Shown piece by piece: positions 320 to 63,343 of a stretch of DNA of 64,000 nt. The stretch lies in the IMG/VR virus record IMGVR_UViG_3300024294_000597; one strand, 5' to 3'. This DNA comes from a virus. Numbering within the stretch: position 1 is the stretch's first letter; every line of letters starts with the position of its first letter. The position numbers were made by a program, and so were the translations under genes. Under the pieces are notes generated by a model that was not told the DNA's origin, ran no database searches, and saw only the letters and a program-made list of their open reading frames with translations.

Positions 320-559
320 CTATAATTTATCAACATGCTCCTGAACGCATTGAATGGCATCACCAATCGTGTGGATTAGGTTTGCGTATTCATCTTCAAT
401 CGCAATACCATAGAATTCTTCCACTTCAAATACAATTTCAACTGTATCGATACTATCAGCACCTAAGTCTTTTTTGAGATTTGTTTCATCATTCAAGTCA
501 GTAACTTGTTTTTTCAATTTACGTGCAACTATTTCATACACTTTGTCTTTTACTACCAT
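320..559 (-). CDS. acpP: Acyl carrier protein
   Basis: 79 aa, acidic, with the LGADSIDTVEIV phosphopantetheine Ser motif and EEFYGIAI helix pattern. Confidence 0.92.
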   Translation of the reverse strand: MVVKDKVYEIVARKLKKQVTDLNDETNLKKDLGADSIDTVEIVFEVEEFYGIAIEDEYANLIHTIGDAIQCVQEHVDKL

Positions 560-9752: not shown

Positions 9753-9966
9753 AATTTGTTTCTCCTTAGAATAATAGCTTATTAAGGTTAAGACATATAA
9801 TATTGAATATACAATACGCCTATCTATATTTTCTCAATTTTATTTGAAATGTAATTACCGGAAGAAACCTCAGTAATGATAAGAGATTAAGAACATCAGG
9901 CGAAAGCCCGGTAAAACTCTTACTGATAGTATTTAGCTGTTAGATTAGTTATGTTTTATACGTAGT

Positions 9967-12012: not shown

Positions 12013-12029
12013 TCAAATTATTCCTATTC

Positions 12030-15000
12030 TTACATCATTGTAAACATGACCCATGCATGGGTATCAGTACCAAATGAACGAGATGCGCCGGTGTCTGCTT
12101 CTCTAAGTTTCAATGTAACTGTTGATGACCCTAGTGAACCAAATGCTGTTGGAGAACCGGCTGAACCGCCACCCGCTACTTTACGAGTTGATATATCTTT
12201 GTTCAGTGGCATTATAACGTATTCATTTGAGCCTCTTGCATAGCCATATATTAATATATTAGCTGGCGGATAACTATGCCCTGAGAAAGTAATCTCAACG
12301 TCACCGCCTGTAGTTGATAAAATTGTTGCACTTACACCACTTGAAGTGTTTGATATAGAACTCAAACTACCGTTAGTTGCATAATTTAATTTAAATTTCT
12401 CAGTAGAAGTTCCACCTCCACCTCCACCACCAGATGCCGGAGCCGCTGGAGCATATGAATTGTTACTACTGTTCCACGTTAATACATCGCCATTATTTGG
12501 TGTATCTGTGGCAACATCTGATAATTCTGTAATTGATTCGCTTGTTAAGTCAGTTGTGCTACCTGATGTAGCAACAAATTTTGTTCCGTCCCATGCTAAG
12601 TAATCGCCTGTGCTAACACCTGATATGTTTACATCTTGGAAGTCGCCAACAGAAGAACTTGATAAGTCTGGTGTACCGCCTGTTTCATTGACTGGTGCCC
12701 ATTCTGAGCCTGACCATTTTAATATTTGTCCCGTACTCGGAGCGTTAGCTGATACGTTTTGTAAATCGCCGATATTTGCATTCAATGAGAACACATCAGA
12801 ATTTAACTGTAAACCAGTTCCTGCTGTGTATGTGTCACCTAGTAGATTTCCGGTATCTGTTAAGTCATCGATATCTGTAGGTATAGTTGGCTTATTCTTT
12901 ATGTTTGTCCAATCCATTACGTCTTGGCTGTTGAACATCAAGTTTGCGCCAGTAGTATTAAGTGTGTTATTACCAATGTATAATGAGTTATCACTTAAGA
13001 ACAAGTGTCTAATCTTTTTAGATGCACTACCAATATCATATGTTTCAGTTGTATCTGGTAAGATATGAAAATCAAACTGACCCATATATGATTCAACATC
13101 TGAGTCACCGTATGATGAACCACCGCCACCTGTTACAGTTGAGAATGTAAAGTTACCCGAACCATCAGTTGTAAGAACTTGGCCACTAGTACCAGAAGGC
13201 ATAGTCAAATCGCTCAATGTACTTGGTATCAAACTATTTGAGTCTGCTAACTGATTAATGTCTGTAATCGCTGTAGGCTTGCCTGTCAAGTCACTATAAG
13301 CACCGCTAAATGCATCTGTGATGCCATAGCCTGCTAAGGTCGATGGTGTACTTGTTACATTGCTCCATGCTATAGATGATGCATTGCCTAATAAATTACT
13401 ATTATCAGTTAGGTCACCCAAATCTACTGGAATGCTTGGTTTGTTTGATAAAGATACATAGTTACCATCGAATGTAGTAAATCCTGTATCATTAGTCAAA
13501 TCACTTACTTTAGATGGTATTGTTGGTTTACCAATCAAATCTGAATATATACCACTAAACGTACTAAAGTTAGTTAAGTTTGGAGGAGTATATGTGAACA
13601 CACCTGACGCTGAACTATATGTAAGTGAACCATTACCACTTGCATTTTGTTGAGAAACAGAAACTGCCGTTCTTGCATCTGCATCTGAATATGTTGAACC
13701 ACCACCTGTAGAAGCGATAGTTAATATACCACCTGCTCCTGGTGTGATAGTAATGTTTGCACCTGGCAATAGTTGTGAACCTAGTCTTTGGTCTACTCTT
13801 GAATCTGTATAATAAAGATTATTCGTACCTTCAGTAATTATATCACTGTTAGTTGCTTGAATTCTTGAATCTACACGTGAATCTTTATAGTAAAGATTAG
13901 TCGAACCTTCTGCTAATGCATCTGTGCTTGTCAGTACTAAATCATCGTCTGGTTCAAATCTATTTGCTGATGCGTTCCATTTTAGAACTTGTCCGTCAGT
14001 TAAGCCTGCTGTACTCACATCAAGTAAGTCATTTATACCTGCATTTAATGTAAACTCGCCGCTTACACTATTGTATTGTAAACCGACGCCTGCACTTAAA
14101 TCTGTTAAGGCTATTCCTGCACCACCAGTTGAAGTTGAGTCAGGCGATGCCGCCCATTGCGACCCATCCCATTTTAGAACTTCACCAGTTGCTGGAGTAC
14201 TTGAACTTACGTTTGTCAGGTCACTTAATGATAAATCTAAATTCTGAATTGTAGCACCATTGAAGTCTACTGTACCTGAGAATGATGATGAACCATTTGA
14301 TGAAATATTACCACCGAAACCTGCTGAACCACTCGTATTATCAAGTAGAACATTACCGTTAGTATCGTATAGTTTACCTTCGAATGCATTTGCTGTAACT
14401 GTAGTTGTTGTAGTAATACGATTAAATGTTACATCGTCTGTAGTAGCAAGTGATTGGTCAGAAACAACTGCCTGAGAATATTCATACTGATTGTTAAGGT
14501 TGTTCCATACTAGAGTATCACCGTTTGATGGATTATTCAGTCTATCAACATTTGATAAATGCTGTATGCTAGGATAAGAGTTTACCCACGCTGTACCGCT
14601 CCATTGCAATGATTGATATTGCTGTGTGTTTGCAATCGTTGTGTCCGATGCACCAGCGATTGAACCAGATAGATTTACTGTCTGATTTTCCCATTCACCT
14701 GATGTATTATTATATACTAAGAACTGACCATCTGTTGTGCCTGTTACTGTAACGTCATCTAAGTCATCTATAGTTTGCACAGAAGACCCACCAAGTGATG
14801 ATAGGTCTACAGTATTACCATTTGCTATAGTTAAGATATTGGTTGAAGTATCGAATGATAGAGTTTGGTTGTCTGTGTCTGTAAACATACCAGAAAAATC
14901 TACTGTATTACTTCCTGAGATACTTAATTGTGTTCCAGCTAAAGATAGTGACTGAGCGCCTGCGCCCGATAAACTTGATAAATCAACCCCATTGCCTCCA

Positions 15001-17086: not shown

Positions 17087-17794
17087 TTATTTATCTAAAT
17101 CACTTAATAGCACGGATTTTGTTATGGTACTAATGCACTCACTTGCAACAAAAGTTAGCAAATCTGTATCAATTCTCTCACGGCAATAAATTGCGTATAG
17201 TTGATACGGATGATGAATATATCTGCCCTGTTTCTTTTGCATATATACAGGATCAAAACGCATCATATTAGAGTTAAGTCTATAATTTGGATTATGTGCA
17301 TACATTTTGTACAAGTCGTGACCTGTATGGTCAATAAAATCTCTATTAGGCTTGAATACTATCTTATATTGATATTTTTTAAACCATAGCGACCTCTTTA
17401 TTTCTACTCTACGGTCAAAGCTATCTAATACCTCTTTTAGATTTTCAATCATAGGCTCAGCGTAGCTTTTATGCAAATCTACATATCTTTGTTTTGCTTC
17501 TTCATAATCAGACTTATGTTTAAAATACACATGAGTTAATGCACCATTATTGAATTTTACGTTTTTAAACTTTTTTAAGTAGTTATAGCAATTAATTCTA
17601 ACTGATTTTTCTTCATCGTCACGTGGCATATCAAACCACCAATCATTAATAGCTTGTGGATTTTCTTGGAAATGTCTTCGCCAAAATAAGCTGTCTTTAT
17701 CTGGGAATCCAAATAAACGCTTAAATGATATCTTATATGGGTGAGTCCCATAAAATAATTTAGTTACTTTTTCCGTAATCAAAATCAATCTCAC
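17087..17794 (-). CDS. Hypothetical protein
   Basis: Long ORF directly downstream of clpA; start uncertain. Confidence 0.55.
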   Translation of the reverse strand: MRLILITEKVTKLFYGTHPYKISFKRLFGFPDKDSLFWRRHFQENPQAINDWWFDMPRDDEEKSVRINCYNYLKKFKNVKFNNGALTHVYFKHKSDYEEAKQRYVDLHKSYAEPMIENLKEVLDSFDRRVEIKRSLWFKKYQYKIVFKPNRDFIDHTGHDLYKMYAHNPNYRLNSNMMRFDPVYMQKKQGRYIHHPYQLYAIYCRERIDTDLLTFVASECISTITKSVLLSDLDK

Positions 17795-19991
17795 TATTTT
17801 TGATATTAATTGTTACTGCGCCACCATCGACAAGTTTTCCAAATAATATTTCTTTTGATAAAGGTTTCTTAATGTAATCATTGACTACTCGTTGTAAAGG
17901 TCTTGCTCCCATGTCAGGGAGATATCCTTTATCTCTTAACCAAACTCTTGCTTCATCTGATAATTGTATAGATACATTTTTATCTGATAGCATTTCATTG
18001 ATTTCTTTGATTGTTTTATCAACAATCATGTCTATGTGTTCACGTTCCAATGAAACAAATTCAACCATTGCATCTAGTCTATTTCTAAACTCTGGTGAAA
18101 AGAATTTCTTAACTGCTTCATATGAAGCACCTTGATTTGAATTCGTGAACCCTATAGCACTCTTAGATTGTTGTGCCGCTCCTAAGTTACTAGTCATTAT
18201 AAGAATAACATTGCTAAAGTCTGCTGTTTTACCAGTTGAACTAGTCAAACGACCATCGTCCATAACTTGTAATAAGAGGTTCATTACACTTGGATGGGCT
18301 TTCTCAACTTCATCTAATAGAACAACACAGTTAGGTGTTTCATCTACGTCATTGATAAGTTGTCCAGCACCAGCCCCGCCTTCGGCGTGTCCTACATAGC
18401 CCGGAGGGGCACCGATAAGTTTAGATACAGAATGTTGTTCCATGTATTCTGACATATCGTACTTTCTAAGTTTGATATCAAGATTATCTGCTAATTGTCT
18501 ACACAATTCAGTTTTACCTGTTCCTGTTGGACCTACAAACAAGAATGACCCTATAGGTTTATTTCTTGCCCTCATACCTGATTTAGATACGAGTATAGAT
18601 TCAACTAATGAACCAACTGCTTTGTCTTGTCCAAATAGTTTTGTCTTAATACTTTCTTCTAGTTTTTCATAGTTCGCATTTTGTTTTGCGTCTATCATTT
18701 CTAAAGGAATTCTTGTAATTTTTGCTACGGCTTGTTGTATTTCTTCTTTAGAAATTTTACCTTTATGTTTGTGTAGCTTTGCTCTTGCACCTGCTACATC
18801 AATAACATCGATTGCTCTATCAGGGTTAAACTTACCATGCATATAACGTTCTGCTAAATCAACTGATAACTCTATCGCTTCGCTTGTATATTCTACTTCG
18901 TGATATGCTTCATAATATTGCTTCAAGCCTTTTAAAATTAATTTTGTATTCTCTGCACTTGGTTGGTCAATAACAAGTTTCTGAAAACGTCTTTGTAATG
19001 CTCTATCTTTTTCAAAGTTTTCTCTGTATTCTTCACTTGTTGTTGCACCAATACAATGCAATTTACCATTTGCTAATAATGGTTTCAATAAGTTTGCAAT
19101 ATCTATATTAGACCCACCTGCCGAACCTGCACCCATAATCATATGTATTTCATCAATGAATAAGATAACATCTTTCTTCAATGCTAGTTGGTCAAATACT
19201 GCTTTTGCTCTTTCTTCAAATTCACCACGATACTTTGTACCTGCTACTAATGAAGTAACATCTAGTGAGTAAACTGTTTTTTCTTTTAATATCTCAGGAA
19301 CTTGTCCTTCACCAATCATCAATGCAAGACCTTCTGCTATAGCAGTTTTACCTACGCCTGGTTCACCGACTACGATTACATTATTCTTTTTACGTCTTGC
19401 TAATACTTCGGTCATTTCGATTAGTTCATCTTCACGACCAATAACTGGATCAATTAGTCCATCCAATGCTTGTTGATTTAGATTTAAGCAATAATCTTCA
19501 AATCTAACAGGTGCGCCTTGTCCCTGTCCGCCACCAACCATGTCTCTACCTTGCTGAGTACCATAATATTCTTTTCTAAGAATATCAATGGCTTTATCAC
19601 GGGTAACACCTGATTGCTTTAAAATATAATAAGCTGTAGAACCATTCTCACTCAATAGAGAAACAAATATATCTCTTACTTGAAGTTTGGAACGTCCACT
19701 AAAAATTACTTGTGTTACTGCACGATTGAAAACACGGTCTAATGATAGAGTTTTTCTTGGCGTCTTAGTATCTTCGTTCTTCGTAATATCATCACGTTCA
19801 TTGAGAAATTTTTCTAGTTCTTCTAAAATAAATTTTACGTCACATTTCATTTTTGATAACATGTCACTAACGTCTTCTTCTTCCATAATAGAATATAAAA
19901 GATGTTCTAGTGTTACATATTCGTGTGCGAGTGAATTTGCGTGTTGAACAGCACGTTCAATAGAAATGTTTACTCTATCTGCTTTGCTCAT
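17760..19991 (-). CDS. clpA: ATP-dependent Clp protease ATPase subunit ClpA
   Basis: Clp N-domain (EYVTLEHLL), two AAA+ modules (GEPGVGKT, GPTGTGKT, IDEIH, LDEVEKAH), an IGF ClpP-docking loop and no ClpB middle domain. Confidence 0.92.
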   Translation of the reverse strand: MSKADRVNISIERAVQHANSLAHEYVTLEHLLYSIMEEEDVSDMLSKMKCDVKFILEELEKFLNERDDITKNEDTKTPRKTLSLDRVFNRAVTQVIFSGRSKLQVRDIFVSLLSENGSTAYYILKQSGVTRDKAIDILRKEYYGTQQGRDMVGGGQGQGAPVRFEDYCLNLNQQALDGLIDPVIGREDELIEMTEVLARRKKNNVIVVGEPGVGKTAIAEGLALMIGEGQVPEILKEKTVYSLDVTSLVAGTKYRGEFEERAKAVFDQLALKKDVILFIDEIHMIMGAGSAGGSNIDIANLLKPLLANGKLHCIGATTSEEYRENFEKDRALQRRFQKLVIDQPSAENTKLILKGLKQYYEAYHEVEYTSEAIELSVDLAERYMHGKFNPDRAIDVIDVAGARAKLHKHKGKISKEEIQQAVAKITRIPLEMIDAKQNANYEKLEESIKTKLFGQDKAVGSLVESILVSKSGMRARNKPIGSFLFVGPTGTGKTELCRQLADNLDIKLRKYDMSEYMEQHSVSKLIGAPPGYVGHAEGGAGAGQLINDVDETPNCVVLLDEVEKAHPSVMNLLLQVMDDGRLTSSTGKTADFSNVILIMTSNLGAAQQSKSAIGFTNSNQGASYEAVKKFFSPEFRNRLDAMVEFVSLEREHIDMIVDKTIKEINEMLSDKNVSIQLSDEARVWLRDKGYLPDMGARPLQRVVNDYIKKPLSKEILFGKLVDGGAVTINIKNSEIDFDYGKSN

Positions 19992-22528: not shown

Positions 22529-23269
22529 ATGGCACGAAAAAAACGTGTTGAAAAACATAATAACAAAGCAACAAATCGTAATAACGATTACGGTATAATC
22601 CCATTACATAAAAAAACAATTCCAACTATTTTACCCAGAAACGTATCACAAGAAGACTATCTATATCAGTTAGCTAATCCAGACAACAATATTGTATTTG
22701 CGATTGGTCCAGCTGGTACAGGTAAGACACTCCTATGTACGCAAATGGGTATAAAAGCATTCATGGAAAGAGAGGTGAAGAAAATAGTTATAACTCGTCC
22801 CGCTGTGTCGGTGGACGAGCAACACGGGTTCTTGCCCGGTGACTTAAATGAAAAAATGTCACCATGGACGAGACCTATATTTGATATATTTGAGAAGCAT
22901 TTTTCGATGCAACAAATCGAAATGATGCTTGAGGAAAATTTGATTGAGATAGCCCCACTAGCATATATGCGTGGTCGCACATTTGAAAATTCGTGGATCA
23001 TAGCTGATGAAATGCAGAATGCAACGAAATCTCAAATGAAAATGTTATTAACCAGAATAGGTGTTAATACAAAGATGATTGTAACAGGCGACTTAAAACA
23101 GCATGATAGAGGATTTTCAGAAAACGGTCTTTCAGATTTTGTCGAACTTGTACGCAACTACGAAAACGCTAAACTAAAACATATTAGTATTAGTAGGTTC
23201 GAGTTAATGGATGTTGAAAGACATCCTGCGGTTACAGAAGTTTTAAAAATTTACGGAGAAGACGATTAA
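22529..23269 (+). CDS. phoH: PhoH-family ATPase
   Basis: GPAGTGKT, GFLPGD, LAYMRGRTF, DEMQN, TGDLKQHD; SD AAGGAGG. Confidence 0.95.
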   Translation: MARKKRVEKHNNKATNRNNDYGIIPLHKKTIPTILPRNVSQEDYLYQLANPDNNIVFAIGPAGTGKTLLCTQMGIKAFMEREVKKIVITRPAVSVDEQHGFLPGDLNEKMSPWTRPIFDIFEKHFSMQQIEMMLEENLIEIAPLAYMRGRTFENSWIIADEMQNATKSQMKMLLTRIGVNTKMIVTGDLKQHDRGFSENGLSDFVELVRNYENAKLKHISISRFELMDVERHPAVTEVLKIYGEDD

Positions 23270-23943: not shown

Positions 23944-25308
23944 TCACACTTTTTCTTTAGTTACTAATCTCCAAACTTCGGGCAAAGCAGTCTTAATATT
24001 TTTGCCTCTACGTTTGTCCAATAAAATAGAATACTTATAAAAATCTAATATTTCTGTTCTACTTGGTTCTTGTGCTATTAATGACTTTCCTTTACGAACA
24101 GTTTCTTTCAACATACGTATCGTAGTCATGTTCCAATGATTACCTGCTTGATAGTGTTTATCTTTTATATCACCTAACCATTTTTCGATTCTTCTAAACA
24201 AATCTTTATCTCCTTCACCGTTATTTTCATGAGGGAAAAGTTTTGGTTGGAGATATGCAGGATACATTACATTATTAAGATAAATGTTTATACCTTCTCC
24301 TTGATTAATCAACAAGGCTTTTTGTATGTTATCTCCTCTTATTTCTAAGCATAAGTCTAACCACCATTGAAACATTTCAGGAATGTGATTGGCGTTATAC
24401 ACACTCAGCGTTGGTTCCCATTTTACTTGAAAACCTTCATATTTCATTGATAATTCTAGCCAACTTCTGGCTGTTGCGTTTACAGTTTCCCAAGAACTTA
24501 AATGTCTCGTATAGTCATTTACTTCCTCGGTTCCGTCAATGCTCAACGATATTTTTACTTCTTTAAATTGTTTCAACCTATTGATAATTTTATCCTTTGG
24601 TATCCAACTTGCATTTGTAAAAATATGCAAAGCAATATTCTTTGCGTAACCTGTTTCAATAATAAAGTCTACAATACTTCCGAACTTTGGATGTAACATT
24701 GGCTCACCGCCAACGAACTTTATTCTATTAACATGTTCATAATCTTGTTTGTTATAGTCGATTTGTAGTTTCGTGTCTGTACCATACACTCCTCTACCAA
24801 ACCCCATTTCATCATTTAACCATCTATCATCTTCTTCCCACTTTGTACTTAATGAAGAAGAACATATATTACATGCAAGATTACAATAATTTCCTAAATT
24901 CATTTCAATATAAGTTAATTTAGGTGTTTGTATGTAATCTATTACTTCTGCCCAATCACCTTGGCTATCATGTGTTAAACCTGCATCAACTTTTTGTTCA
25001 AGCATTATCTCATTTGCTTGTTGTCGTAATGAATATATTCCTTGTTCTTCTTCTTCGTAACATTTCCAACAACCAGGATCTTTTTTTCCAGATAGTGAAT
25101 TTTTTCTTAATTCATTCCATTTGTCTGAATGAAAGGTTTCATTGAAACTCTTTACTGGTTCCATTGGCCAAGCTACAGGATGATTTTTAGGGTCTTCCAA
25201 ATCGCCTTTTTTATTATTATATCTACAACAGGGATTACTTAATCTACCGTTCCAAAGTGCAACATGATTAAAGAAGTATTTGCAATAAGTTTTAGATGAT
25301 ATAGACAT
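23944..25308 (-). CDS. Radical SAM protein with an N-terminal SPASM/twitch-like Cys cluster
   Basis: CNLACNIC (CxxxCxxC), GGEPMLH, SIDG; N-terminal YC...PCC...CWKC. Confidence 0.85.
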   Translation of the reverse strand: MSISSKTYCKYFFNHVALWNGRLSNPCCRYNNKKGDLEDPKNHPVAWPMEPVKSFNETFHSDKWNELRKNSLSGKKDPGCWKCYEEEEQGIYSLRQQANEIMLEQKVDAGLTHDSQGDWAEVIDYIQTPKLTYIEMNLGNYCNLACNICSSSLSTKWEEDDRWLNDEMGFGRGVYGTDTKLQIDYNKQDYEHVNRIKFVGGEPMLHPKFGSIVDFIIETGYAKNIALHIFTNASWIPKDKIINRLKQFKEVKISLSIDGTEEVNDYTRHLSSWETVNATARSWLELSMKYEGFQVKWEPTLSVYNANHIPEMFQWWLDLCLEIRGDNIQKALLINQGEGINIYLNNVMYPAYLQPKLFPHENNGEGDKDLFRRIEKWLGDIKDKHYQAGNHWNMTTIRMLKETVRKGKSLIAQEPSRTEILDFYKYSILLDKRRGKNIKTALPEVWRLVTKEKV

Positions 25309-34371: not shown

Positions 34372-34449
34372 TGGTCGGGGTGGTAGGATTCGAACCTACG
34401 CTCTCCTGGTCCCAAACCAGGCGCTTTAGCCAGACTAAGCTACACCCCG
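34372..34449 (-). tRNA. tRNA-Pro(TGG)
   Basis: Cloverleaf, anticodon arm CCTGG-TTTGGGA-CCAGG, GTTCGAATC, encoded CCA. Confidence 0.95.
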
Positions 34450-34453
34450 ATAA

Positions 34454-34798
34454 TTATGGTAAACAAGGTTTAATAGAATTCTTATAATACAAAACCGTTT
34501 TATCATTTGTTGTTTCTACACGATGGATTACCGATTCTTTTGGTCGTCCAAAACATTTATTCAAACTTTGACCTGGAAAACGATAACGAGTATTCATTTT
34601 TAGAAACTCCCACTGTTTTGCATTTCGAATTCTAATATTCTCATTTCTTTTGCTATCAATACAAAAAGCAACATCTGACAAGTTATCATAATCAGCCATA
34701 CACTTTTTTGCAATAAAGTTTTTAGCATCCGCGCCCGTAGAGATTAGTAAACACGTAATCAATACGGTTGCAAATTGAGCCGATAATTTAGTATCCAT
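34454..34798 (-). CDS. Hypothetical exported protein
   Basis: Signal-like N-terminus and paired Cys. Confidence 0.5.
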   Translation of the reverse strand: MDTKLSAQFATVLITCLLISTGADAKNFIAKKCMADYDNLSDVAFCIDSKRNENIRIRNAKQWEFLKMNTRYRFPGQSLNKCFGRPKESVIHRVETTNDKTVLYYKNSIKPCLP

Positions 34799-34989
34799 TA
34801 TTCAGGCTCCACCCAAGGATAACAAGGAATAATACTTTGCTTACAATAACGAGCATTATCTACCAATAGGAATGGAACTCCTACAATAAAGAACAAAATA
34901 ATAGCAAATGCTTTACCTAGTCCTTTTAGTGTGCAATAATTAGTTTGTTCACTCATGTTCGCCACCTCGGCCTCGACCAAAGCCACCAA
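34798..34989 (-). CDS. Small membrane protein (start probably MSEQTNY)
   Basis: One TM segment. Confidence 0.5.
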   Translation of the reverse strand: MVALVEAEVANMSEQTNYCTLKGLGKAFAIILFFIVGVPFLLVDNARYCKQSIIPCYPWVEPE

Positions 34990-35377
34990 AATATTGTGGC
35001 TTGCGTTTTGCTGTTTCGAATGTTGCTACAGTAATAGCAATGGCACCAAGTAATAGTGTATGTAGCATCATACTGAACACTCCTGCCCACATGCTACCTA
35101 CAATAATAGCAAATACAATACACCACATCCATGCTAATACTTGCATAATCATATGTCGTGTACTAAAATCTGGAATATTACTTAGTGGATTCTTTTCGTG
35201 ATCCATTACTACATTCCAACTGTTAAAAATAAATTCTCTCATTGATATTACCTTTCTAAATATTATCTTTGTAGGATAATGAGCATCCATATCATCACGA
35301 TATTCAATCGCATCATGTACATCATGGAATTCTTGGGATATTTTTTTATCCTTAAACCATGCCGTTACTTTATACAT
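34949..35377 (-). CDS. Membrane protein (possibly internal start MREFIFNSW)
   Basis: Two TM segments in the C-terminal half. Confidence 0.55.
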   Translation of the reverse strand: MYKVTAWFKDKKISQEFHDVHDAIEYRDDMDAHYPTKIIFRKVISMREFIFNSWNVVMDHEKNPLSNIPDFSTRHMIMQVLAWMWCIVFAIIVGSMWAGVFSMMLHTLLLGAIAITVATFETAKRKPQYFGGFGRGRGGEHE

Positions 35378-35394
35378 CTATTATCCTTTCTTCT

Positions 35395-35468
35395 TGGCAT
35401 CGGTGCAGGGAGTCGAACCCCGGCTTACAGTTTTGGAGACTGTCGTGCTACCGTAACACTTCACCGAT
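35395..35468 (-). tRNA. tRNA-Trp(CCA)
   Basis: ATCGGTG/CACCGAT acceptor, ACAGT-CTCCAAA-ACTGT anticodon arm, CCA end. Confidence 0.95.
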
Positions 35469-35474
35469 AAATTT

Positions 35475-35551
35475 TGGTAGACCCCGCCGGACTTGAACCG
35501 ACACTCGACCCGTTATGAGCGGGTGGCTTTAACCAATTAAGCTAGAGGTCT
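35475..35551 (-). tRNA. tRNA with CAT anticodon (Ile2-like or elongator Met)
   Basis: ACCCG-CTCATAA-CGGGT; paired 1-72 so not initiator; C4/C5 acceptor as in Ile2. Confidence 0.9.
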
Positions 35552-35558
35552 ATAATAT

Positions 35559-35636
35559 TGGCCTCCACTAGAGGACTCGAACCTCTGACCTAGTGCTTAG
35601 AAGGCACTTGCTCTAATCCAACTGAGCTAAGTGGAG
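35559..35636 (-). tRNA. tRNA-Arg(TCT)
   Basis: AGTGC-CTTCTAA-GCACT anticodon arm, CCA end. Confidence 0.95.
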
Positions 35637-35644
35637 AAATTAAA

Positions 35645-35719
35645 TGGTACACCCTACGAGAATCGAACTCGTCTTTCCAGGTTGAAAACCTGGCGTCCTA
35701 ACCGATAGACGAAGGGTGC
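35645..35719 (-). tRNA. tRNA-Glu(TTC)
   Basis: CCAGG-TTTTCAA-CCTGG anticodon arm, CCA end. Confidence 0.95.
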
Positions 35720-35727
35720 GTAATGAT

Positions 35728-35814
35728 TGGTGCCTCCTCCCGGACTCGAACCGGGACGCTTTTAAAGGCGAGAGATTTTAAGTCTCTTGTGTCTACCTAT
35801 TCCACCAAGGAGGC
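35728..35814 (-). tRNA. tRNA-Leu(TAA)
   Basis: AGAGA-CTTAAAA-TCTCT, long variable arm, CCA end. Confidence 0.95.
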
Positions 35815-37436: not shown

Positions 37437-37464
37437 AATATAACACGATTCGGGGATTTGTCAA
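37437..37464 (-). promoter_or_regulatory. sigma70-type early promoter with CGAATC
   Basis: TTGACA-aatcccCGAATCgtgt-TATATT. Confidence 0.8.
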
Positions 37465-38624: not shown

Positions 38625-38652
38625 ATAATAACATGGAATGCTATTTTGTCAA
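38625..38652 (-). promoter_or_regulatory. sigma70-type promoter (variant spacer, no GANTC)
   Basis: TTGACA-aaatagcattccatgt-TATTAT. Confidence 0.7.
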
Positions 38653-39085: not shown

Positions 39086-39691
39086 TTATTGTGCTACGTT
39101 GTCTCCGAATTCAGAGTAATTGTGAAAAACATAGTTCCAAAGTTGACTGATATTTTCAATTTCTGAACCTAACTTTAGAGCATATGTTGAAATCTGATTT
39201 GATACAGAATTATAATCAACATCATCTAACAGACAATCTTCAAGCATTTTTGTAACGCATTCTTTTACTTGAACATAACGCATGTTTTCTAGTTTACGTG
39301 CAACCCATTTCTTACCTGCATAACGTCCTGTCTGCATACGTACTTTTGGGTCACGTGTAATGCAAGTGTATCCTTCTGATTCATAGATTTCAGAAAATAA
39401 CTGATACTCAGATTGTAAATCTTCTTTATCAACATCACCTAATTCTTCATAAGAAACAGTCCATTCATCTTTTTTAGTACTGCTAAGAATTCGTAGGAAA
39501 GTTGTAGTAGAACCTGATTGAGCAGAATCTTTTCCTGAAAGAGCATATGCGGCTTTTGAAAACGCATTTGTAACTGTTACGTTCTGCTTATAATTTTCTT
39601 GTGAAGTTTGCCAAATGTGATACATTTTTCGAGTATCATTTGCAAAAATGCAAAATGTATGGGGAACTTTAATTGTTTCTAACTCTGACAT
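39086..39691 (-). CDS. Hypothetical early protein
   Basis: Own promoter at 39721-39748. Confidence 0.6.
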   Translation of the reverse strand: MSELETIKVPHTFCIFANDTRKMYHIWQTSQENYKQNVTVTNAFSKAAYALSGKDSAQSGSTTTFLRILSSTKKDEWTVSYEELGDVDKEDLQSEYQLFSEIYESEGYTCITRDPKVRMQTGRYAGKKWVARKLENMRYVQVKECVTKMLEDCLLDDVDYNSVSNQISTYALKLGSEIENISQLWNYVFHNYSEFGDNVAQ

Positions 39692-39720: not shown

Positions 39721-39748
39721 ACTATAACACGATTCGCTAGTTTGTCAA
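39721..39748 (-). promoter_or_regulatory. sigma70-type early promoter with CGAATC
   Basis: TTGACA-aactagCGAATCgtgt-TATAGT. Confidence 0.8.
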
Positions 39749-39750
39749 GT

Positions 39751-40233
39751 TTATGGAGAGTATTCGAAATTTTGAGTATCATCATTAATGCTAATTTGTT
39801 TAGCACCATTACTGATATGAAAATGAGTGGCCATCGGAGTAAGTGGTGATAGTGTTACAACTTTTTCTATTCCTTTTTTCTTAGCAAGTTCTAAAACTTT
39901 TTTTACTATTTCTTTTCCTGCTCCACGTTTACGTGACCATACGGTATAAGCAACTGCAACTTTATTATCTTTTTTTAGATACGCAAGTTCACTCATCATG
40001 TCTAACTCACGTACACTTGTTGGTACGTCAGGAGTGAATGCGACACAAATAATTGCTTCTATGTTTTCCTCATATTGTAGTCCGTAAATTTTGCGTCCAT
40101 TAGTAATTCTCCATCCCAAAGTTAACTCTGGTCTAACTGGATCTTCTGTAACATCGATATCGTCTAGTTCAACTAATTCTGTTCCCTTGACCCATCTAAA
40201 GTAATCATTAATTTTATCTTTAACTATTCTCAA
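39751..40233 (-). CDS. Minimal GNAT-fold protein resembling the malonyl-CoA decarboxylase catalytic domain
   Basis: ICVAFTPDVPTSV, AVAYTVWS, VVTLSP and THFHISNGA parallel the MCD motifs VALT..IP.SI, AVFYSI, TLSP and FHLxNGA. Confidence 0.65.
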   Translation of the reverse strand: MRIVKDKINDYFRWVKGTELVELDDIDVTEDPVRPELTLGWRITNGRKIYGLQYEENIEAIICVAFTPDVPTSVRELDMMSELAYLKKDNKVAVAYTVWSRKRGAGKEIVKKVLELAKKKGIEKVVTLSPLTPMATHFHISNGAKQISINDDTQNFEYSP

Positions 40234-40245
40234 AATACAATCTCT

Positions 40246-41142
40246 TTATTCAAACAGACTGCCAAAGGCATCTGTTTGGTTAGGGTTAATACGCAACTGT
40301 TTTGGATAACCTGTTCTTTCTTTTTTTATTAGTTGCGTCCACTTACTTTTGTCATTTGGTAAGTTATATTTCTTTGCAATATAATCATCACGCATCTTTT
40401 CATCATCTTTACGAGTTTCAGTATCACTCCAAGTTGATCCAGCCGTCATTTCTTTCAGCATTATATTACGCAACATATAAGTTCCTTTGTTTGCCATTAC
40501 ACAAGAAACTATAAATTCATCATCTTCACCACCAAGTATGGGTTTTGTACCTAATGGATGTACATTAAAGTACTCGTCCATCATTAAACGTTCTGGATTG
40601 TTTCGTAGAAAAAACATAGTACCTTTCATGTGGGTAAGTTTTCTATCGAATACAAATTCTGCATTCCAGTCTACATCTTTGTAGTCTTTATCTACTCCAT
40701 TAAATTTGTCATAGAAAGCCCCATCGCCCGGTCTTTGGTCGTTGTGCGGCGAGAATAACGTAACATCACTAAACTTTCCCGGATTGCTACGTAGAGCATC
40801 GACAATGTTGATATGAGTGTGGTCAAAATTAGGATGCATATTAAGGATTGCATCACTATCTGCAAAGATACCCCACTCCTCATTTGTATCATAGAAATAA
40901 TTAAATAGTACATTTCTTGCACTTGCAGGAGGAATAGGATTGTCAAGACGGTCGATATACACAACCCGAGGATCATTCCAATATTCCACTTCATCAAAGT
41001 CCATAGCGAGAATTCGTATCTCAAGTTCTTTGTCATAATCTAACCACCACTCTACTTGCTTATTATGATTAACACTTCTCTTATTTCTTGTCTCTGCATT
41101 ATCACGTGACCCATGATATGCAATGATATGAATTGCTTTCAT
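40246..41142 (-). CDS. Putative GT-A glycosyltransferase-like protein
   Basis: ASARN, IFADSD (DxD) and GGEDDEF motifs. Confidence 0.55.
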   Translation of the reverse strand: MKAIHIIAYHGSRDNAETRNKRSVNHNKQVEWWLDYDKELEIRILAMDFDEVEYWNDPRVVYIDRLDNPIPPASARNVLFNYFYDTNEEWGIFADSDAILNMHPNFDHTHINIVDALRSNPGKFSDVTLFSPHNDQRPGDGAFYDKFNGVDKDYKDVDWNAEFVFDRKLTHMKGTMFFLRNNPERLMMDEYFNVHPLGTKPILGGEDDEFIVSCVMANKGTYMLRNIMLKEMTAGSTWSDTETRKDDEKMRDDYIAKKYNLPNDKSKWTQLIKKERTGYPKQLRINPNQTDAFGSLFE

Positions 41143-42746
41143 TATTTTATACCTATCAACATAAACCTATTGTATCGGTCACAATCTTTGGTTCCAACAA
41201 ATAGTATTTCAGACATTATATACTTTTCTTGCAATTCTGTCAAGTCATTAACAGTGTTTATATGTTCATCAATTTCATGGAAATCATTCGTTTGTATAGC
41301 TACAACTGTGCCTGGTTTGATTTTATTAAACCATTCTTCTGTCATATGTTCTGCACTTGTATTGATAACTAAGTCATGTTTATCATAATCGTAGTCATAT
41401 GCGTCTTCTACTAAGCCTGAGTACGTATTATTGAACTGATTAAGTTTGTTACTAAATTTTATTGCTTCTGGATCCATATCAATATTTGTAATATGATGTA
41501 CAATATTTCTTTTGTGTGTCCAGAATGTCGATATACCCAACCAACCACCTATGAATACTGCATCTTCAAAGCGTCTATTTAACTTAACTAAATTATCAAT
41601 TAACCATGTTTTGCTTTCTACTTGATAATTAGAATGTGCGTCTACGATGTTTACTTCTGGAGCTTCCTTGAATGCTCCCATTAACATACCAAAATATGGA
41701 TCTTGTTCTGTATTAAAGTACTCATACATGAAATGGATACATCTTTCAGGGTTGAATCTATTCTTTATACCACTGTAAAGATATTGTAAAAATATTTGTA
41801 AATGTTCAGACTTATATTTCTTATCCCATATAAGTTTTTCTATAGCATTAAATACGTGGTCTTGGTTGCTATCAATAACAGCCAATCTCATTAATTCTAA
41901 GTCTTCTACATTTGGATGATTTGTCCACTCAGCATATCGTTGAATACCATTTAGCATATATCTACCATCAGGGTATGTCGTATCGAATTCGACTATTGGT
42001 TGTGCCTTCCAATTCTTTCTTTGCTTAAACCAAGTGTTCAACCATTTCCAATTATTAATTCTGTGTAACTTATCACCTTTGCCCACGTTAACAGTACCAT
42101 AATTTTCGCCCATTATGGCCCCTAATAAGATTTCTGCACGAAATCCTACATCCTCTAATGGGGTCTTCCATTCTTTTAATTTGGTTCTTCTATCTTGTGT
42201 TGCAATGCCACTTGCTAGTTTAGTGCTTTCTCTAAATGCACCTTTCCACGCATTAAAGGCTGTTGTATTAAAACGTGTTTCATTAGAAACATGTTCTATT
42301 GGTAAGTAAGGAAATCCACGCCTTGCTACTTCTGATGTAACATCAACACCTGGAAACTCTACATGAGCCCAAGCCTTATCAAAGAATGCTTCACGGGCAA
42401 ATAGCTTAACACCGCCGTAGCCGTATGTCATTCCTGTTGCTGGATTTGTTGCTCTCCAAACATGTGTGCATTGTGCTGAACATGTTTCGGGATATACTTC
42501 ATCTGTTGTGCTTGGTATATATGAAAAGTCGAAATCATCAACAATCCATGCATCGCCATCTACAACAAAGAAATGGTCAGTCTTTGATTGTCTTGCACAT
42601 TCTTTATGAGCATTATAGATACCATCTACGTCTGCTACATTAACCACACGTTGTGGGAAACCTGACCTGTCTTTTATTCTGTCATAGTTTTCTTGTGAAA
42701 AATCGTTCTTATATGTTAGATAGAATATATCCAATAATGGTTGCAT
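41142..42746 (-). CDS. Glycosyltransferase-like / SAM methyltransferase-like fusion
   Basis: N-terminal FFVVDGD and YGYGGVKL; C-terminal FIGGWLG, IDMDP and VINTSAEHM. Confidence 0.65.
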   Translation of the reverse strand: MQPLLDIFYLTYKNDFSQENYDRIKDRSGFPQRVVNVADVDGIYNAHKECARQSKTDHFFVVDGDAWIVDDFDFSYIPSTTDEVYPETCSAQCTHVWRATNPATGMTYGYGGVKLFAREAFFDKAWAHVEFPGVDVTSEVARRGFPYLPIEHVSNETRFNTTAFNAWKGAFRESTKLASGIATQDRRTKLKEWKTPLEDVGFRAEILLGAIMGENYGTVNVGKGDKLHRINNWKWLNTWFKQRKNWKAQPIVEFDTTYPDGRYMLNGIQRYAEWTNHPNVEDLELMRLAVIDSNQDHVFNAIEKLIWDKKYKSEHLQIFLQYLYSGIKNRFNPERCIHFMYEYFNTEQDPYFGMLMGAFKEAPEVNIVDAHSNYQVESKTWLIDNLVKLNRRFEDAVFIGGWLGISTFWTHKRNIVHHITNIDMDPEAIKFSNKLNQFNNTYSGLVEDAYDYDYDKHDLVINTSAEHMTEEWFNKIKPGTVVAIQTNDFHEIDEHINTVNDLTELQEKYIMSEILFVGTKDCDRYNRFMLIGIK

Positions 42747-42749
42747 GAC

Positions 42750-43073
42750 CTAGTTTACATCATCTGGCTTTGTTTCACTAGTTCCTAACATTGCTTCTGG
42801 ATCACCCATCCAAATCTCGGTTTCTTCACCATCTATGTCAACGGTCATTGATTCTGTCCATCTTGCATGTTCCATTAGTACCCACTGTCCGGCTACTACT
42901 GATTCTTGCTCAGGTCCCACTGCATAGACTTGCGCCCAACGTGGTCTAATGCCACGCTCGCCTGCTGACATTTTAGAATCATCTAAAACGATAACTCCGC
43001 CTTTTGTTGTTTTTTCCCCTTTATCCAAGTTCTTCAAAAGAACTCGGTCCCTGATTGGTCTTAAACTCGCCAT
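42750..43073 (-). CDS. groES: Co-chaperonin GroES-like
   Basis: LRPIRDRVL, EKTTKGGVIV mobile loop and VYAVGP. Confidence 0.88.
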   Translation of the reverse strand: MASLRPIRDRVLLKNLDKGEKTTKGGVIVLDDSKMSAGERGIRPRWAQVYAVGPEQESVVAGQWVLMEHARWTESMTVDIDGEETEIWMGDPEAMLGTSETKPDDVN

Positions 43074-59416: not shown

Positions 59417-59884
59417 TTAAGATACATAAATTTTAAGTACTTCGTACTCAATATCACCTGCGGGACGCATAATTGCTACAATATCACCAACTTTTGAGCC
59501 GATTAGTTCAGCGCCTAGTGGTGATTTGAAGCTAATTATTCCATTATTTGGGTCTGATTCGAACTCTCCGGCAATCGTATATTCGATTGTCTTTTCTGTA
59601 TCACAGTTTTCAATCTTAACTGTTGTACCAAAGGATACTTTTTCTTTCTTTCCTTTGGCCAAAGGCTCCATTACTGTTACCTTTTCAAGCATTTCCTGTA
59701 GTCTATGAACTTCCATGTCTACTCGTTGCATATCTTCCAATGCAACCAAAAGTTCCTCATTTTCTTCAAGACCGCCTTGTAGTCTTGCGGCAGTTATACG
59801 TTCTGTTATTTCTGGTCGTTTATCTTGTGTTTCTAAAATCTTTCTGTATAAATCGTCTCTGCCTTTGGCACTTATTAAATCCAT
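59417..59884 (-). CDS. greA: GreA/GreB-family factor with an altered tip (likely start ATG 59884)
   Basis: RPEITERITAARLQGGLEEN, VSFGTTV, ISFKSPLGAELIG and GD; TAAATA at 59928-59933 just upstream. Confidence 0.85.
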   Translation of the reverse strand: MDLISAKGRDDLYRKILETQDKRPEITERITAARLQGGLEENEELLVALEDMQRVDMEVHRLQEMLEKVTVMEPLAKGKKEKVSFGTTVKIENCDTEKTIEYTIAGEFESDPNNGIISFKSPLGAELIGSKVGDIVAIMRPAGDIEYEVLKIYVS

Positions 59885-59977
59885 ATTATTTTTATTCTCA
59901 CTTAAATTATTATTACTTGAACGCCCATATTTATCAGATTGTTCTACTTTAAAGCCCATAATAGTACTAGTCATTTG

Positions 59978-60268
59978 TTATTCCTCTCCAGTTGTTTTCA
60001 TATCTTTAGTCATTACATCTAACATAGTTTGTAGATGATTTTCTCTACCAAATTGCCTATCTAGCATTGCTCTAAACAACATCGATATAGCAACCATTTC
60101 ATTGCCAACACCATCATCATACGGATTAATGTCATTGTCAACTAGTACTTGAATAGCGGATTGAAGATATTCTATTACAATATCTTCGATATCATCTTGA
60201 TCCATTTCATGTACTAATTTTGTCAAATCTGGTCTATACTTATTAAGTTCTATTACATTATCGGTCAT
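59978..60268 (-). CDS. Hypothetical protein
   Basis: ATGA overlap. Confidence 0.55.
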   Translation of the reverse strand: MTDNVIELNKYRPDLTKLVHEMDQDDIEDIVIEYLQSAIQVLVDNDINPYDDGVGNEMVAISMLFRAMLDRQFGRENHLQTMLDVMTKDMKTTGEE

Positions 60269-60681
60269 GATTTTAACTTGTCCTCTATAACTACGTATGC
60301 TATTACTATTGACTTTTCATCACTGACACTTAAATGAATAGTTTTATCTTTTATTATTTGCTCATTTGCAATCTCATTAGATACCCTAACTTGTGGATGT
60401 TTTAATCCATAGCTTCCAGTCGGAGAGAAGTATGTAATATTACCCCAAGTAAAGTTACCTTTAAATCCAATACCTAATGCTTTAACAAAGGCTTCTTTTA
60501 CTGCCCAACATTTTGCAAGATACTGTGCCTTATTTGCTTGTTGAAAATACTTTTCTTGCTCAGAGGCGCTTAAGATTTTCATAGCGAACTTATCACCATG
60601 CCTGTCTAATGCTTCCTGCATTCTTTTTATTTCAACAATATCTACACCGATACCGTGAATTTTGTTGTGCGTTTTAATCAC
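60265..60681 (-). CDS. acpS: Holo-ACP synthase (AcpS-type phosphopantetheinyl transferase)
   Basis: GIGVDIVEIKR, WAVKEAFVKALGIG and HLSVSDE. Confidence 0.92.
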   Translation of the reverse strand: MIKTHNKIHGIGVDIVEIKRMQEALDRHGDKFAMKILSASEQEKYFQQANKAQYLAKCWAVKEAFVKALGIGFKGNFTWGNITYFSPTGSYGLKHPQVRVSNEIANEQIIKDKTIHLSVSDEKSIVIAYVVIEDKLKS

Positions 60682-62617: not shown

Positions 62618-63343
62618 TTACTCTTTTCTAAGTTTATTGTTTACTTCTATTACAGTCTTCAATATTTCACTTTTTGAGTAGTCATAAAAAGCCTCTGTGT
62701 CTTTAGGAAAACAATGTCCTCCAAAACCAAGTCCACCATCTTCATTAGGTGCCTTCATATGACTAGGTCCTATATTCTCAAATAAGCCTAATATATCTAT
62801 CATCTTATCATGATTATAGGAATTGTCAAGATTATTTTTCATTTCATGAAAAAATGCTACTTTTATTGCTAACCAAGAGTTATGTACATATTTTATCATA
62901 CTTGCTGTTGTTCTATCCACATCAAAAAAGAATACATTTAAATATGAAAATACTCCTCTCCAATAATGACAGCCTTGTGGTGATCCACCTAAGATAAAAT
63001 GCTTTTGTCTATCCCAATCGTCTTTCGCCGTATTTGCTCTCAAAAACTCAGGATTATATGTAACATTATCAGGATACTGTTCCAACATGTCTGGTGGCAC
63101 TGTACACTTTAATAATACTTTCATATCTCCTAGTTCTGATAATACTTGTCTGATTATACTATCATCACATTTGCCATTCACTGTAGGTGTAGGAACACAT
63201 ACGACTGCACCTTTAGCCTTTAGATAATCTTGTATCTTATTATCATTTAGCTTTGGATCAATCCTTACTACTTGTTTTCCATTTTCTTCTAGTGATTTAG
63301 CTACTGTTTCCCCTACAAACCCACAACCTACTACTAATATCAT
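62618..63343 (-). CDS. UDP-glucose/GDP-mannose dehydrogenase-like, lacking the C-terminal domain
   Basis: GCGFVG, CVPTP, NPEFLR and GFGGHCFPKD. Confidence 0.82.
   Translation of the reverse strand: MILVVGCGFVGETVAKSLEENGKQVVRIDPKLNDNKIQDYLKAKGAVVCVPTPTVNGKCDDSIIRQVLSELGDMKVLLKCTVPPDMLEQYPDNVTYNPEFLRANTAKDDWDRQKHFILGGSPQGCHYWRGVFSYLNVFFFDVDRTTASMIKYVHNSWLAIKVAFFHEMKNNLDNSYNHDKMIDILGLFENIGPSHMKAPNEDGGLGFGGHCFPKDTEAFYDYSKSEILKTVIEVNNKLRKE

Follow-up and report, generated by a model that had tools for sequence, protein, structure and literature searches.

A phage-encoded GNAT protein related to the catalytic core of malonyl-CoA decarboxylase and shared with SAR11 bacteria

The open reading frame (ORF) at positions 39751-40233 of a 64,000-nt stretch of viral DNA (IMG/VR record IMGVR_UViG_3300024294_000597; the whole stretch is referred to as the window) is a real, strongly conserved gene, whose 160-aa product has the GNAT fold and is related in sequence to malonyl-CoA decarboxylase (MCD). 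We consider the chances about even that this protein is a stand-alone, minimal MCD-type catalytic core that decarboxylates a malonyl thioester and is encoded by a host-shared auxiliary metabolic gene.

The gene and its kinship with malonyl-CoA decarboxylase

The gene has the following position:

39751..40233, minus strand: minimal MCD-like GNAT, 160 aa, TTG start

It starts 12 nt beyond the stop codon of an upstream gene coding for 298 aa and is preceded by an AGAG-type ribosome-binding stretch. The original prediction had drawn attention to a 160-aa ORF with the motifs VTLSP and HFHISNGA; the ORF is present and the motifs occupy residues 126-130 and 137-144, respectively. The candidate catalytic residues are Ser129 (at the end of strand beta5), His139 (in helix alpha4) and Tyr158 (in the last strand). 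The protein also carries motif A in the form R101-x-x-G104-x-G106 (R101-K-R-G104-A-G106), its strand beta4 (VAVAYTVWS) is devoid of Glu, and His139 occupies the position of the canonical Tyr general acid.

The family alignment, and the profile built from it, comprised 83 representatives of 50%-identity clusters. Residues G104, T127, S129, A135, H139, N142 and G143 were invariant, while Y96, T97, W99, G106, P130, F138, A144, N155, E157 and Y158 were conserved in at least 90% of these sequences. The distance between TLSP and FH was 7 residues in each of 163 viral and bacterial loci, and the motifs N[FYW]xY, YTvWS and DPVR, none of which had served to pick the ORFs, were likewise found in all 163. 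The active-site residues are thus kept in phage and bacterial members alike, at identities down to approximately 30%. Given the invariance or near-invariance of these positions across the 83 representatives, VTLSP and FHISNGA constitute a family signature, and the motifs (with S129, H139, N142 and G143 invariant and their spacing fixed) are not random.

This is a very large family with hardly any annotation. Its relatives form at least 7,996 90%-identity clusters of the protein collection, mostly from marine metagenomes, with 516 representatives of 50%-identity clusters, and they were detected in no fewer than 584 viral contigs and in the genomes of at least 345 bacterial species. Database records name them "hypothetical" or "GNAT", PHROGs holds no family for the 160-aa protein, and a megablast search of the locus against cultured phages gave no match. 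Its neighbours in the ESM Atlas are viral clusters automatically named GNAT, one of which has PF05292 on 65% of its members. The search for fused or extended relatives revealed five proteins of 359-370 aa with an extension of approximately 220 residues after the GNAT core, in which the precomputed Pfam annotation contained no known domain.

When the 83-relative profile was compared with the PDB, it matched exactly five distinct sequences, all of them MCD (4ksf, 4ksa, 4f0x, 4ks9 and 2ygw), with E-values from 1.8e-6 (4ksf) to 3e-4. The alignment consists of two blocks. The first comprises the strands up to TLSP, which falls on TLSP of MCD, and the second places FHxxNGA...NFEY on FHLxNGA of MCD, which lies 70-90 residues further along in that enzyme. 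The 160-aa protein aligns with the MCD catalytic domain only, from human residue 177 on. Counting along the profile alignment, with the human MCD numbering taken from PMC3701320, S129 is equivalent to Ser329, H139 to His423, Y158 to Tyr456 and Y96/T97 to Tyr289/Ser290. The proposal that the two motifs represent the Ser and His motifs of MCD was therefore correct, as was the statement that the helical domain of MCD is absent; the insert between beta5 and beta6 of MCD is missing as well. Y158 belongs to the motif NFEY, which is aligned with NYRY of the human enzyme, and is Tyr in all 163 loci.

The residues in question are of known importance in human MCD, in which the substitutions S329A and H423N lower kcat 110-fold and 7-fold, respectively (PMC3701320). 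According to the same study, MCD and CurA share a pattern, in which Glu is missing from beta4 and the canonical Tyr general acid gives way to His, and the phage protein shows this same pattern. Phe288, a strictly conserved residue of beta4 in human MCD that has been proposed to cradle the leaving CO2 (PMC3701320), is aligned with Ala95; Trp99, located on the same face of beta4, might act as its stand-in.

The MCD signal required the profile, since a phmmer search of the PDB with the single sequence returned only insignificant GNAT matches. Searched alone against Pfam, the protein had MCD as its top family (E 9e-4), with a score of 19.4 bits, i.e. under the gathering threshold of 23.2, and its PF00583 score (18.6 bits) was also under threshold (20.7). 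However, 35 of the 83 relatives matched Pfam MCD on their own (E <= 0.01), the best with an E-value of 6.5e-9.

The AlphaFold model of the protein (pLDDT 95.9) has GNAT topology. As shown by the Foldseek comparison suggested with the original prediction, MCD chains took ranks 1-17 (E 6e-7 to 4e-6), followed by generic GNATs from 2e-5. In VIA-align, MCD structures gave Z 14.1-14.3 with 155-159 of the 160 residues aligned (human MCD: Z 14.3 over 159 residues), and the known GNAT-fold decarboxylases SxtA, GphF and CurA were all among the top 12 (Z 13.1-14.3). Ordinary GNAT acetyltransferases reached Z 13-14, over approximately 125 residues only; as this is within 1 Z unit of MCD, structure alone cannot separate the two groups. 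Two other assignments were rejected, namely a GNAT toxin (TacT, AtaT and KacT were far down the Foldseek list, and there was neither an antitoxin-like neighbour nor any common motif) and an ArsN2 or amino-acid acetyltransferase (NCBIfam matches far under threshold).

Occurrence and genomic context in phages and bacteria

The window is collinear with 342-kb TARA scaffolds and with IMGVR_UViG_3300020469_003050 (hereafter G029), the protein identities being 60-96%; G029 is a genome of 342,607 bp with terminal repeats, rated 100% complete. The window thus belongs to a jumbo-phage lineage of approximately 340 kb, in which a conserved run of genes, GroES - 534/537 aa - 298 aa - GNAT - (143 aa) - DNA ligase, was observed. 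The features of the window around the GNAT gene are:

42750..43073, minus strand: GroES/Cpn10-like gene, first of the run GroES-534-298-GNAT
41142..42746, minus strand: 534-aa gene, overlapping the start of the 298-aa gene
41215..41243, minus strand: perfect sigma70-type consensus TTGACA-17-TATAAT, approximately 70 nt upstream of the 298-aa gene (pattern match)
40246..41142, minus strand: 298-aa gene, directly upstream of the GNAT gene (12-nt gap)
39721..39748, minus strand: promoter-like TTGACA-16-TATAGT with TG, just past the GNAT stop codon (pattern match)
39086..39691, minus strand: 201-aa ORF without a family match, with a promoter-like TTGACA-16-TATAGT of its own

The 298-aa gene adjoins the GNAT gene in the jumbo-phage lineage only. 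Its product is unrelated to the helical domain of MCD, and its glycosyltransferase-like character is a lead rather than a result; the glycosyltransferase-like N-terminus and the weakly methyltransferase-like C-terminus of the 534-aa product are also leads only. Judged by its sequence, the site at 41215-41243 is a possible early promoter for the pair of genes composed of the 298-aa and GNAT genes, and the pattern matches would fit early transcription. The promoter-like site right after the GNAT stop codon suggests that this gene is the last of its unit. The 201-aa ORF that follows is absent from otherwise collinear relatives and hence represents a lineage-specific insertion.

Several other features of the window are worth recording. 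A TTGACA box, a 16-nt spacer, TG and a TATxxT box are common to the intergenic sites 38625-38652, 37437-37464 and 39721-39748 (minus, i.e. coding, strand), which thus form a recurring early-promoter-like motif. Host-like genes, located at 17760-19991, 22529-23269, 23944-25308, 48522-51383, 57114-58262, 59417-59974 and 62618-63343, include those for a ClpA-like ATPase, PhoH, a radical SAM enzyme, a PutA-like proline dehydrogenase (by homology to a relative), an enzyme of the GMP reductase/IMPDH family and a GreA-like factor, as well as a UDP-glucose dehydrogenase-like gene. Six tRNAs are clustered at 34372-35814.

[quoted passage not shown]

320..559, minus strand: phage ACP, 79 aa (PF00550, E 4.5e-10), with a GADSID attachment site
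60265..60681, minus strand: AcpS-type phosphopantetheinyl transferase, 138 aa, GTG start (PF01648, E 1.4e-17; TIGR00516, 88 bits)

The AcpS gene and a 96-aa ORF share 4 nt, and a GreA-like gene then follows. The ACP gene is the last of a run on the minus strand composed of IscA/HesB-like (1627-1956), nitroreductase-like (902-1657) and IscA/HesB-like (582-914) genes and ACP (320-559), which is also kept in the 342-kb relative; this suggests that the phage ACP is linked to Fe-S cluster handling rather than to lipid synthesis. The GNAT, ACP and AcpS genes belong to three different operons separated by 20 and 39 kb (39 kb between ACP and GNAT). In G029 they are found at the same relative distances as in the window, which indicates that the three genes travel together within the jumbo lineage. 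G029 additionally contains, at 82-88.5 kb, a row of genes for an acyl/aryl-CoA-type (AMP-dependent) ligase, a flavin halogenase of the Trp-halogenase family, two proteins without assignment, a fatty-acid desaturase and a FabF-like KAS II; FabD was not found in this genome. This row (region G029:76000-94000, genes at 6104-12548 thereof) looks like a phage-borne acyl-modifying cluster. Its KAS, acyl ligase and desaturase were not found in the 64,000-nt window, so the earlier claim that Fab enzymes are missing holds for the window and fails for the lineage, in which G029 carries the FabF-like KAS along with the ligase, desaturase and halogenase. The phage ACP and AcpS would more naturally serve the acyl cluster of G029 and the IscA/HesB operon than the GNAT protein.

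Relatives of AcpS form 108 protein clusters and are approximately 70 times rarer than those of the GNAT protein. The longest contigs in some of these clusters are of 250-343 kb. AcpS-type transferases are very unusual in phages; in the cultured-phage collection the matches are three doubtful, unannotated records. Viral contigs gave no match to a pattern derived from the AcpS of the window, but this pattern was so strict that the AcpS of G029 was missed too, and the negative outcome was given no weight.

The sole cultured phage with the GNAT gene is Pelagibacter phage Mosig (complete, 141 kb; gene Mosig_00145). No ACP, AcpS or KAS was found in its complete genome, nor in 27 GNAT-carrying IMG/VR contigs of 21-117 kb; the same searches recovered all three in G029, which served as the positive control. 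In the 27 contigs the gene is placed within a T4-like replication module, directly preceded by the family-B polymerase or ThyX gene and followed by gp59, an MT-A70 methylase or a DruA-like gene, and none of the neighbouring genes of the window is present. This context of replication and DNA methylation provides no independent support for a lipid-metabolic role. A role in DNA modification, as might be proposed from the MT-A70, DruA-like and ThyX neighbours, is disfavoured, since bacterial homologues with the same active-site motifs are located in metabolic or housekeeping contexts.

The bacterial genomes, identified using a single strict peptide pattern and counted as species representatives, are mostly of Pelagibacteraceae (SAR11), and further carriers belong to OCS116, Rhodobiaceae and Hyphomicrobiales. 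The bacterial homologues are 48-60% identical to the phage protein, share its motifs and occur on contigs of up to 1.4 Mb. Three chromosomal contexts are recurrent: (i) guaB-guaA-(x)-GNAT-photolyase-x-cupin-panB, (ii) isocitrate lyase (divergent) - ScfR-type short-chain acyl-CoA regulator - GNAT - metallo-beta-lactamase fold - Fe-ADH, and (iii) a cupin/TauE/MFS neighbourhood. Neither acpP nor fab genes were present in any of them, and no neighbour is conserved across the jumbo phages, T4-like phages and bacteria.

Full-length MCD was not detected in 25 GNAT-carrying bacterial genomes. The PF05292 signals in these genomes came from four mini-type ORFs of 190-212 aa, three of them at the GNAT locus; the fourth (190 aa) is located on another contig of one SAR11 single-cell genome (G051:C6:41489-44725), which shows that paralogues exist in hosts. 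A population genomic study of SAR11 lists a gene as "mlycd" under strong purifying selection in offshore genera (PMC12636525).

In a quick and effectively unrooted tree, the sequences of jumbo and T4-like viruses grouped together, apart from three bacterial clades, with one "MAG" sequence (NZHE01000011.1) among the viruses. Contigs of "Rickettsiales" and "Alphaproteobacteria" MAGs, including NZHE01000011.1 and NZHE01000009.1, encode GNAT proteins 69-71% identical to the phage protein; as NZHE01000011.1 groups with the viral sequences, these are probably phage contigs binned into MAGs. The GNAT gene is therefore a host-shared auxiliary metabolic gene, which has also moved between unrelated phage types.

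The idea that GNAT, ACP and AcpS form one functional module was not upheld. The co-occurrence of the three genes, proposed as a check on this idea, was observed in the jumbo lineage, where they occupy separate operons, but the GNAT gene stands alone, without ACP and AcpS, in Mosig, the 27 viral contigs and the bacterial chromosomes. As most of its carriers lack a phage ACP and AcpS, the GNAT protein probably lies outside any fixed module with them.

Proposed reaction and alternative explanations

From the homology, fold, conserved residues, distribution and gene contexts described above, we infer a reaction, a substrate, early expression and a physiological purpose. The RxxGxG loop probably binds the phosphopantetheine-diphosphate part of the malonyl thioester. 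Ser129 and His139 would polarise the thioester carbonyl, with Tyr158 holding His139; the malonyl group would then be decarboxylated without a cofactor and the resulting enolate protonated to yield acetyl (mechanism after PMC3701320). The substrate is most likely malonyl-CoA, which is favoured because the sole relatives by sequence are MCDs, enzymes that depend on CoA, and because a phage ACP is missing from most genomes that carry the gene. The presence of homologues with the same motifs on the chromosomes of SAR11, OCS116 and Rhodobiaceae, their contexts beside the ScfR-type regulator and isocitrate lyase or between guaA and photolyase/panB, and the failure to detect full-length MCD in 25 such genomes argue for a metabolic rather than a phage-specific substrate. 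Early in infection, the phage would use the enzyme to withdraw the committed precursor of fatty-acid synthesis from the host and to replenish the acetyl-CoA pool with it. What speaks against an MCD-type decarboxylase is the replacement of Phe288 by Ala95, the sub-threshold Pfam score and the near-tie with acetyltransferases in structure.

Another possibility, to which we assign a minor share of the probability, is that the protein is an MCD-derived GNAT acyltransferase, for which CoA would be the donor of an acetyl or malonyl group and a sugar, a protein or a DNA base, for example, the acceptor. Its full canonical motif A is nearer to that of acetyltransferases than is the degenerate motif of MCD, generic acetyltransferases are nearly as good by structure score, and loss of the beta5-beta6 insert could open an acceptor site. 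This reading is also favoured by the neighbourhood of the gene, which includes MT-A70 methylase, DruA-like, ThyX and polymerase genes in the T4-like phages and glycosyltransferase-like genes in the window. There is, moreover, a precedent for a mis-assigned decarboxylase in EryM, a GNAT long believed to be one, which is an acyltransferase only (bioRxiv 10.1101/2025.03.07.642089). However, both canonical transferase residues are missing (no Glu on beta4, His in place of Tyr), and the invariant residues are exactly the MCD dyad plus the supporting Tyr. Furthermore, no shared acceptor pathway is evident, given the lack of a neighbour common to jumbo phages, T4-like phages and bacteria, and the identical motifs of host and phage versions point to a common small metabolite. 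Ser, His and Asn-Gly are strictly invariant, and Tyr nearly so, at identities down to approximately 30%; this is typical of an active site and makes it very improbable that the protein is a catalytically silent CoA- or acyl-CoA-binding sensor or sequestering factor, as might be suggested by its small size, the lack of partner domains and the one bacterial context beside an acyl-CoA-responsive regulator.

A different substrate is envisaged if the protein decarboxylates malonyl-ACP, formed on host AcpP or, in jumbo phages, on phage holo-ACP produced by the phage AcpS. The acetyl-ACP thus generated would prime FabH-independent condensation by a FabF-type synthase or serve as an acetyl donor. This is the strongest version of the module put forward in the original prediction. 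The GNAT-like loading domains of PKSs (CurA 2ree, GphF 6mfc and SxtA 7uci) are among the closest folds, and the complete genome of G029 combines ACP, AcpS and GNAT, at the spacing seen in the window, with an acyl ligase, flavin halogenase, desaturase and FabF-like KAS II in the absence of FabD. Acetyl-ACP made by MadA, an unrelated protein, primes FabB/FabF and is the preferred substrate of GlmU in Proteobacteria (PMC8666670). In the window, the GNAT gene comes after two glycosyltransferase-like genes. Against this stands the distribution of the genes, with no phage ACP, AcpS or KAS in Mosig or the 27 viral contigs by searches that detected them in G029, with AcpS relatives far rarer than the GNAT family, and with bacterial homologues that do not adjoin acpP or fab genes; in addition, the profile matches the CoA-using MCD and not the PKS domains. 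We therefore regard the use of malonyl-ACP as rather unlikely, although all of these findings would be compatible with malonyl-ACP of the host as the substrate. Still less probable is its most elaborate form, in which jumbo phages would possess a lipid or polyketide-like pathway of their own, physically dispersed over the genome, whose otherwise missing initiation step is supplied by the GNAT protein. The latter would convert malonyl-ACP to acetyl-ACP on the phage ACP, activated by the phage AcpS, and so prime the FabF-like synthase encoded beside the acyl ligase, flavin halogenase and desaturase; infection would then yield a modified acyl product, which might be halogenated or unsaturated.

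Comparison with known systems

The GNAT-fold decarboxylases CurA (2REE/2REF), GphF (6MFC) and SxtA (7UCI) resemble the phage protein in fold (Z 13.1-14.3), and these GNAT-like domains of PKS loading modules use a dyad of His and Thr/Ser to decarboxylate malonyl-type thioesters (PMC3701320). Proteins of the CurA type are domains of megasynthases beside a carrier domain of their own, with a His-Thr dyad and an Arg (Arg404) linked to S-transfer. In contrast, the phage GNAT is free-standing, has Ser instead of Thr in the dyad, is encoded 39 kb away from the ACP, gives no profile match with these domains and is found mostly in genomes without a phage carrier protein. With the malonyl-ACP decarboxylases MadA and MadB (YiiD), the protein could have a common product, acetyl-ACP, and FabH-independent initiation, should malonyl-ACP prove to be its substrate (PMC8666670). 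However, decarboxylation by the Mad enzymes is carried out by a hot-dog domain rather than by the GNAT domain of MadA, and the catalytic parts are non-homologous. Canonical GNAT N-acetyltransferases (1Y9K, 6AO7 and RimI 2CNM) have the same fold and the same pyrophosphate-binding motif A, but they lack TLSP, FHxxNGA and NFEY, use Glu/Tyr chemistry and align over approximately 125 of the 160 residues, compared with 155-159 for MCD.

SAR11 is the most abundant marine heterotroph, and the GNAT family described here is common to SAR11 and to two unrelated kinds of its phages. If the protein is a malonyl-CoA decarboxylase, it would represent a new class of auxiliary metabolic genes, by which phages shut down the lipid synthesis of the host at the level of its committed precursor. 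In a literature search, no paper tying MCD to phage auxiliary metabolism was found.

The closest comparison is that with MCD itself (MLYCD/MatA, EC 4.1.1.9, PF05292; 4F0X, 2YGW, 4KSA, 4KSF and 4KS9), with which the protein has a common GNAT-fold catalytic core. The shared traits are the Ser-His dyad, the Tyr that holds the His, the Y-S/T motif of beta4, the N-terminal P-V motif and the lack of the canonical Glu base. According to published descriptions, MCD is an oligomer with two domains and 430-490 residues, whereas the phage protein, with its 160 residues, is devoid of the N-terminal helical oligomerisation domain (130-150 aa) and has only 7 residues between TLSP and FH, where MCD contains a helical beta5-beta6 insert of 70-90 residues. 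It further differs from MCD in the replacement of Phe288 by Ala, in a Pfam score under the gathering threshold, and in the canonical RxxGxG loop, which is partly lost in MCD. As both the helical domain and the beta5-beta6 insert are missing, the protein has a new, minimal architecture, and a GNAT core of 160 residues that retains the Ser/His/Tyr machinery would represent the smallest catalytic unit of MCD. Since the canonical CoA loop is still present, it would also constitute an evolutionary intermediate between ordinary acetyltransferases and MCD.
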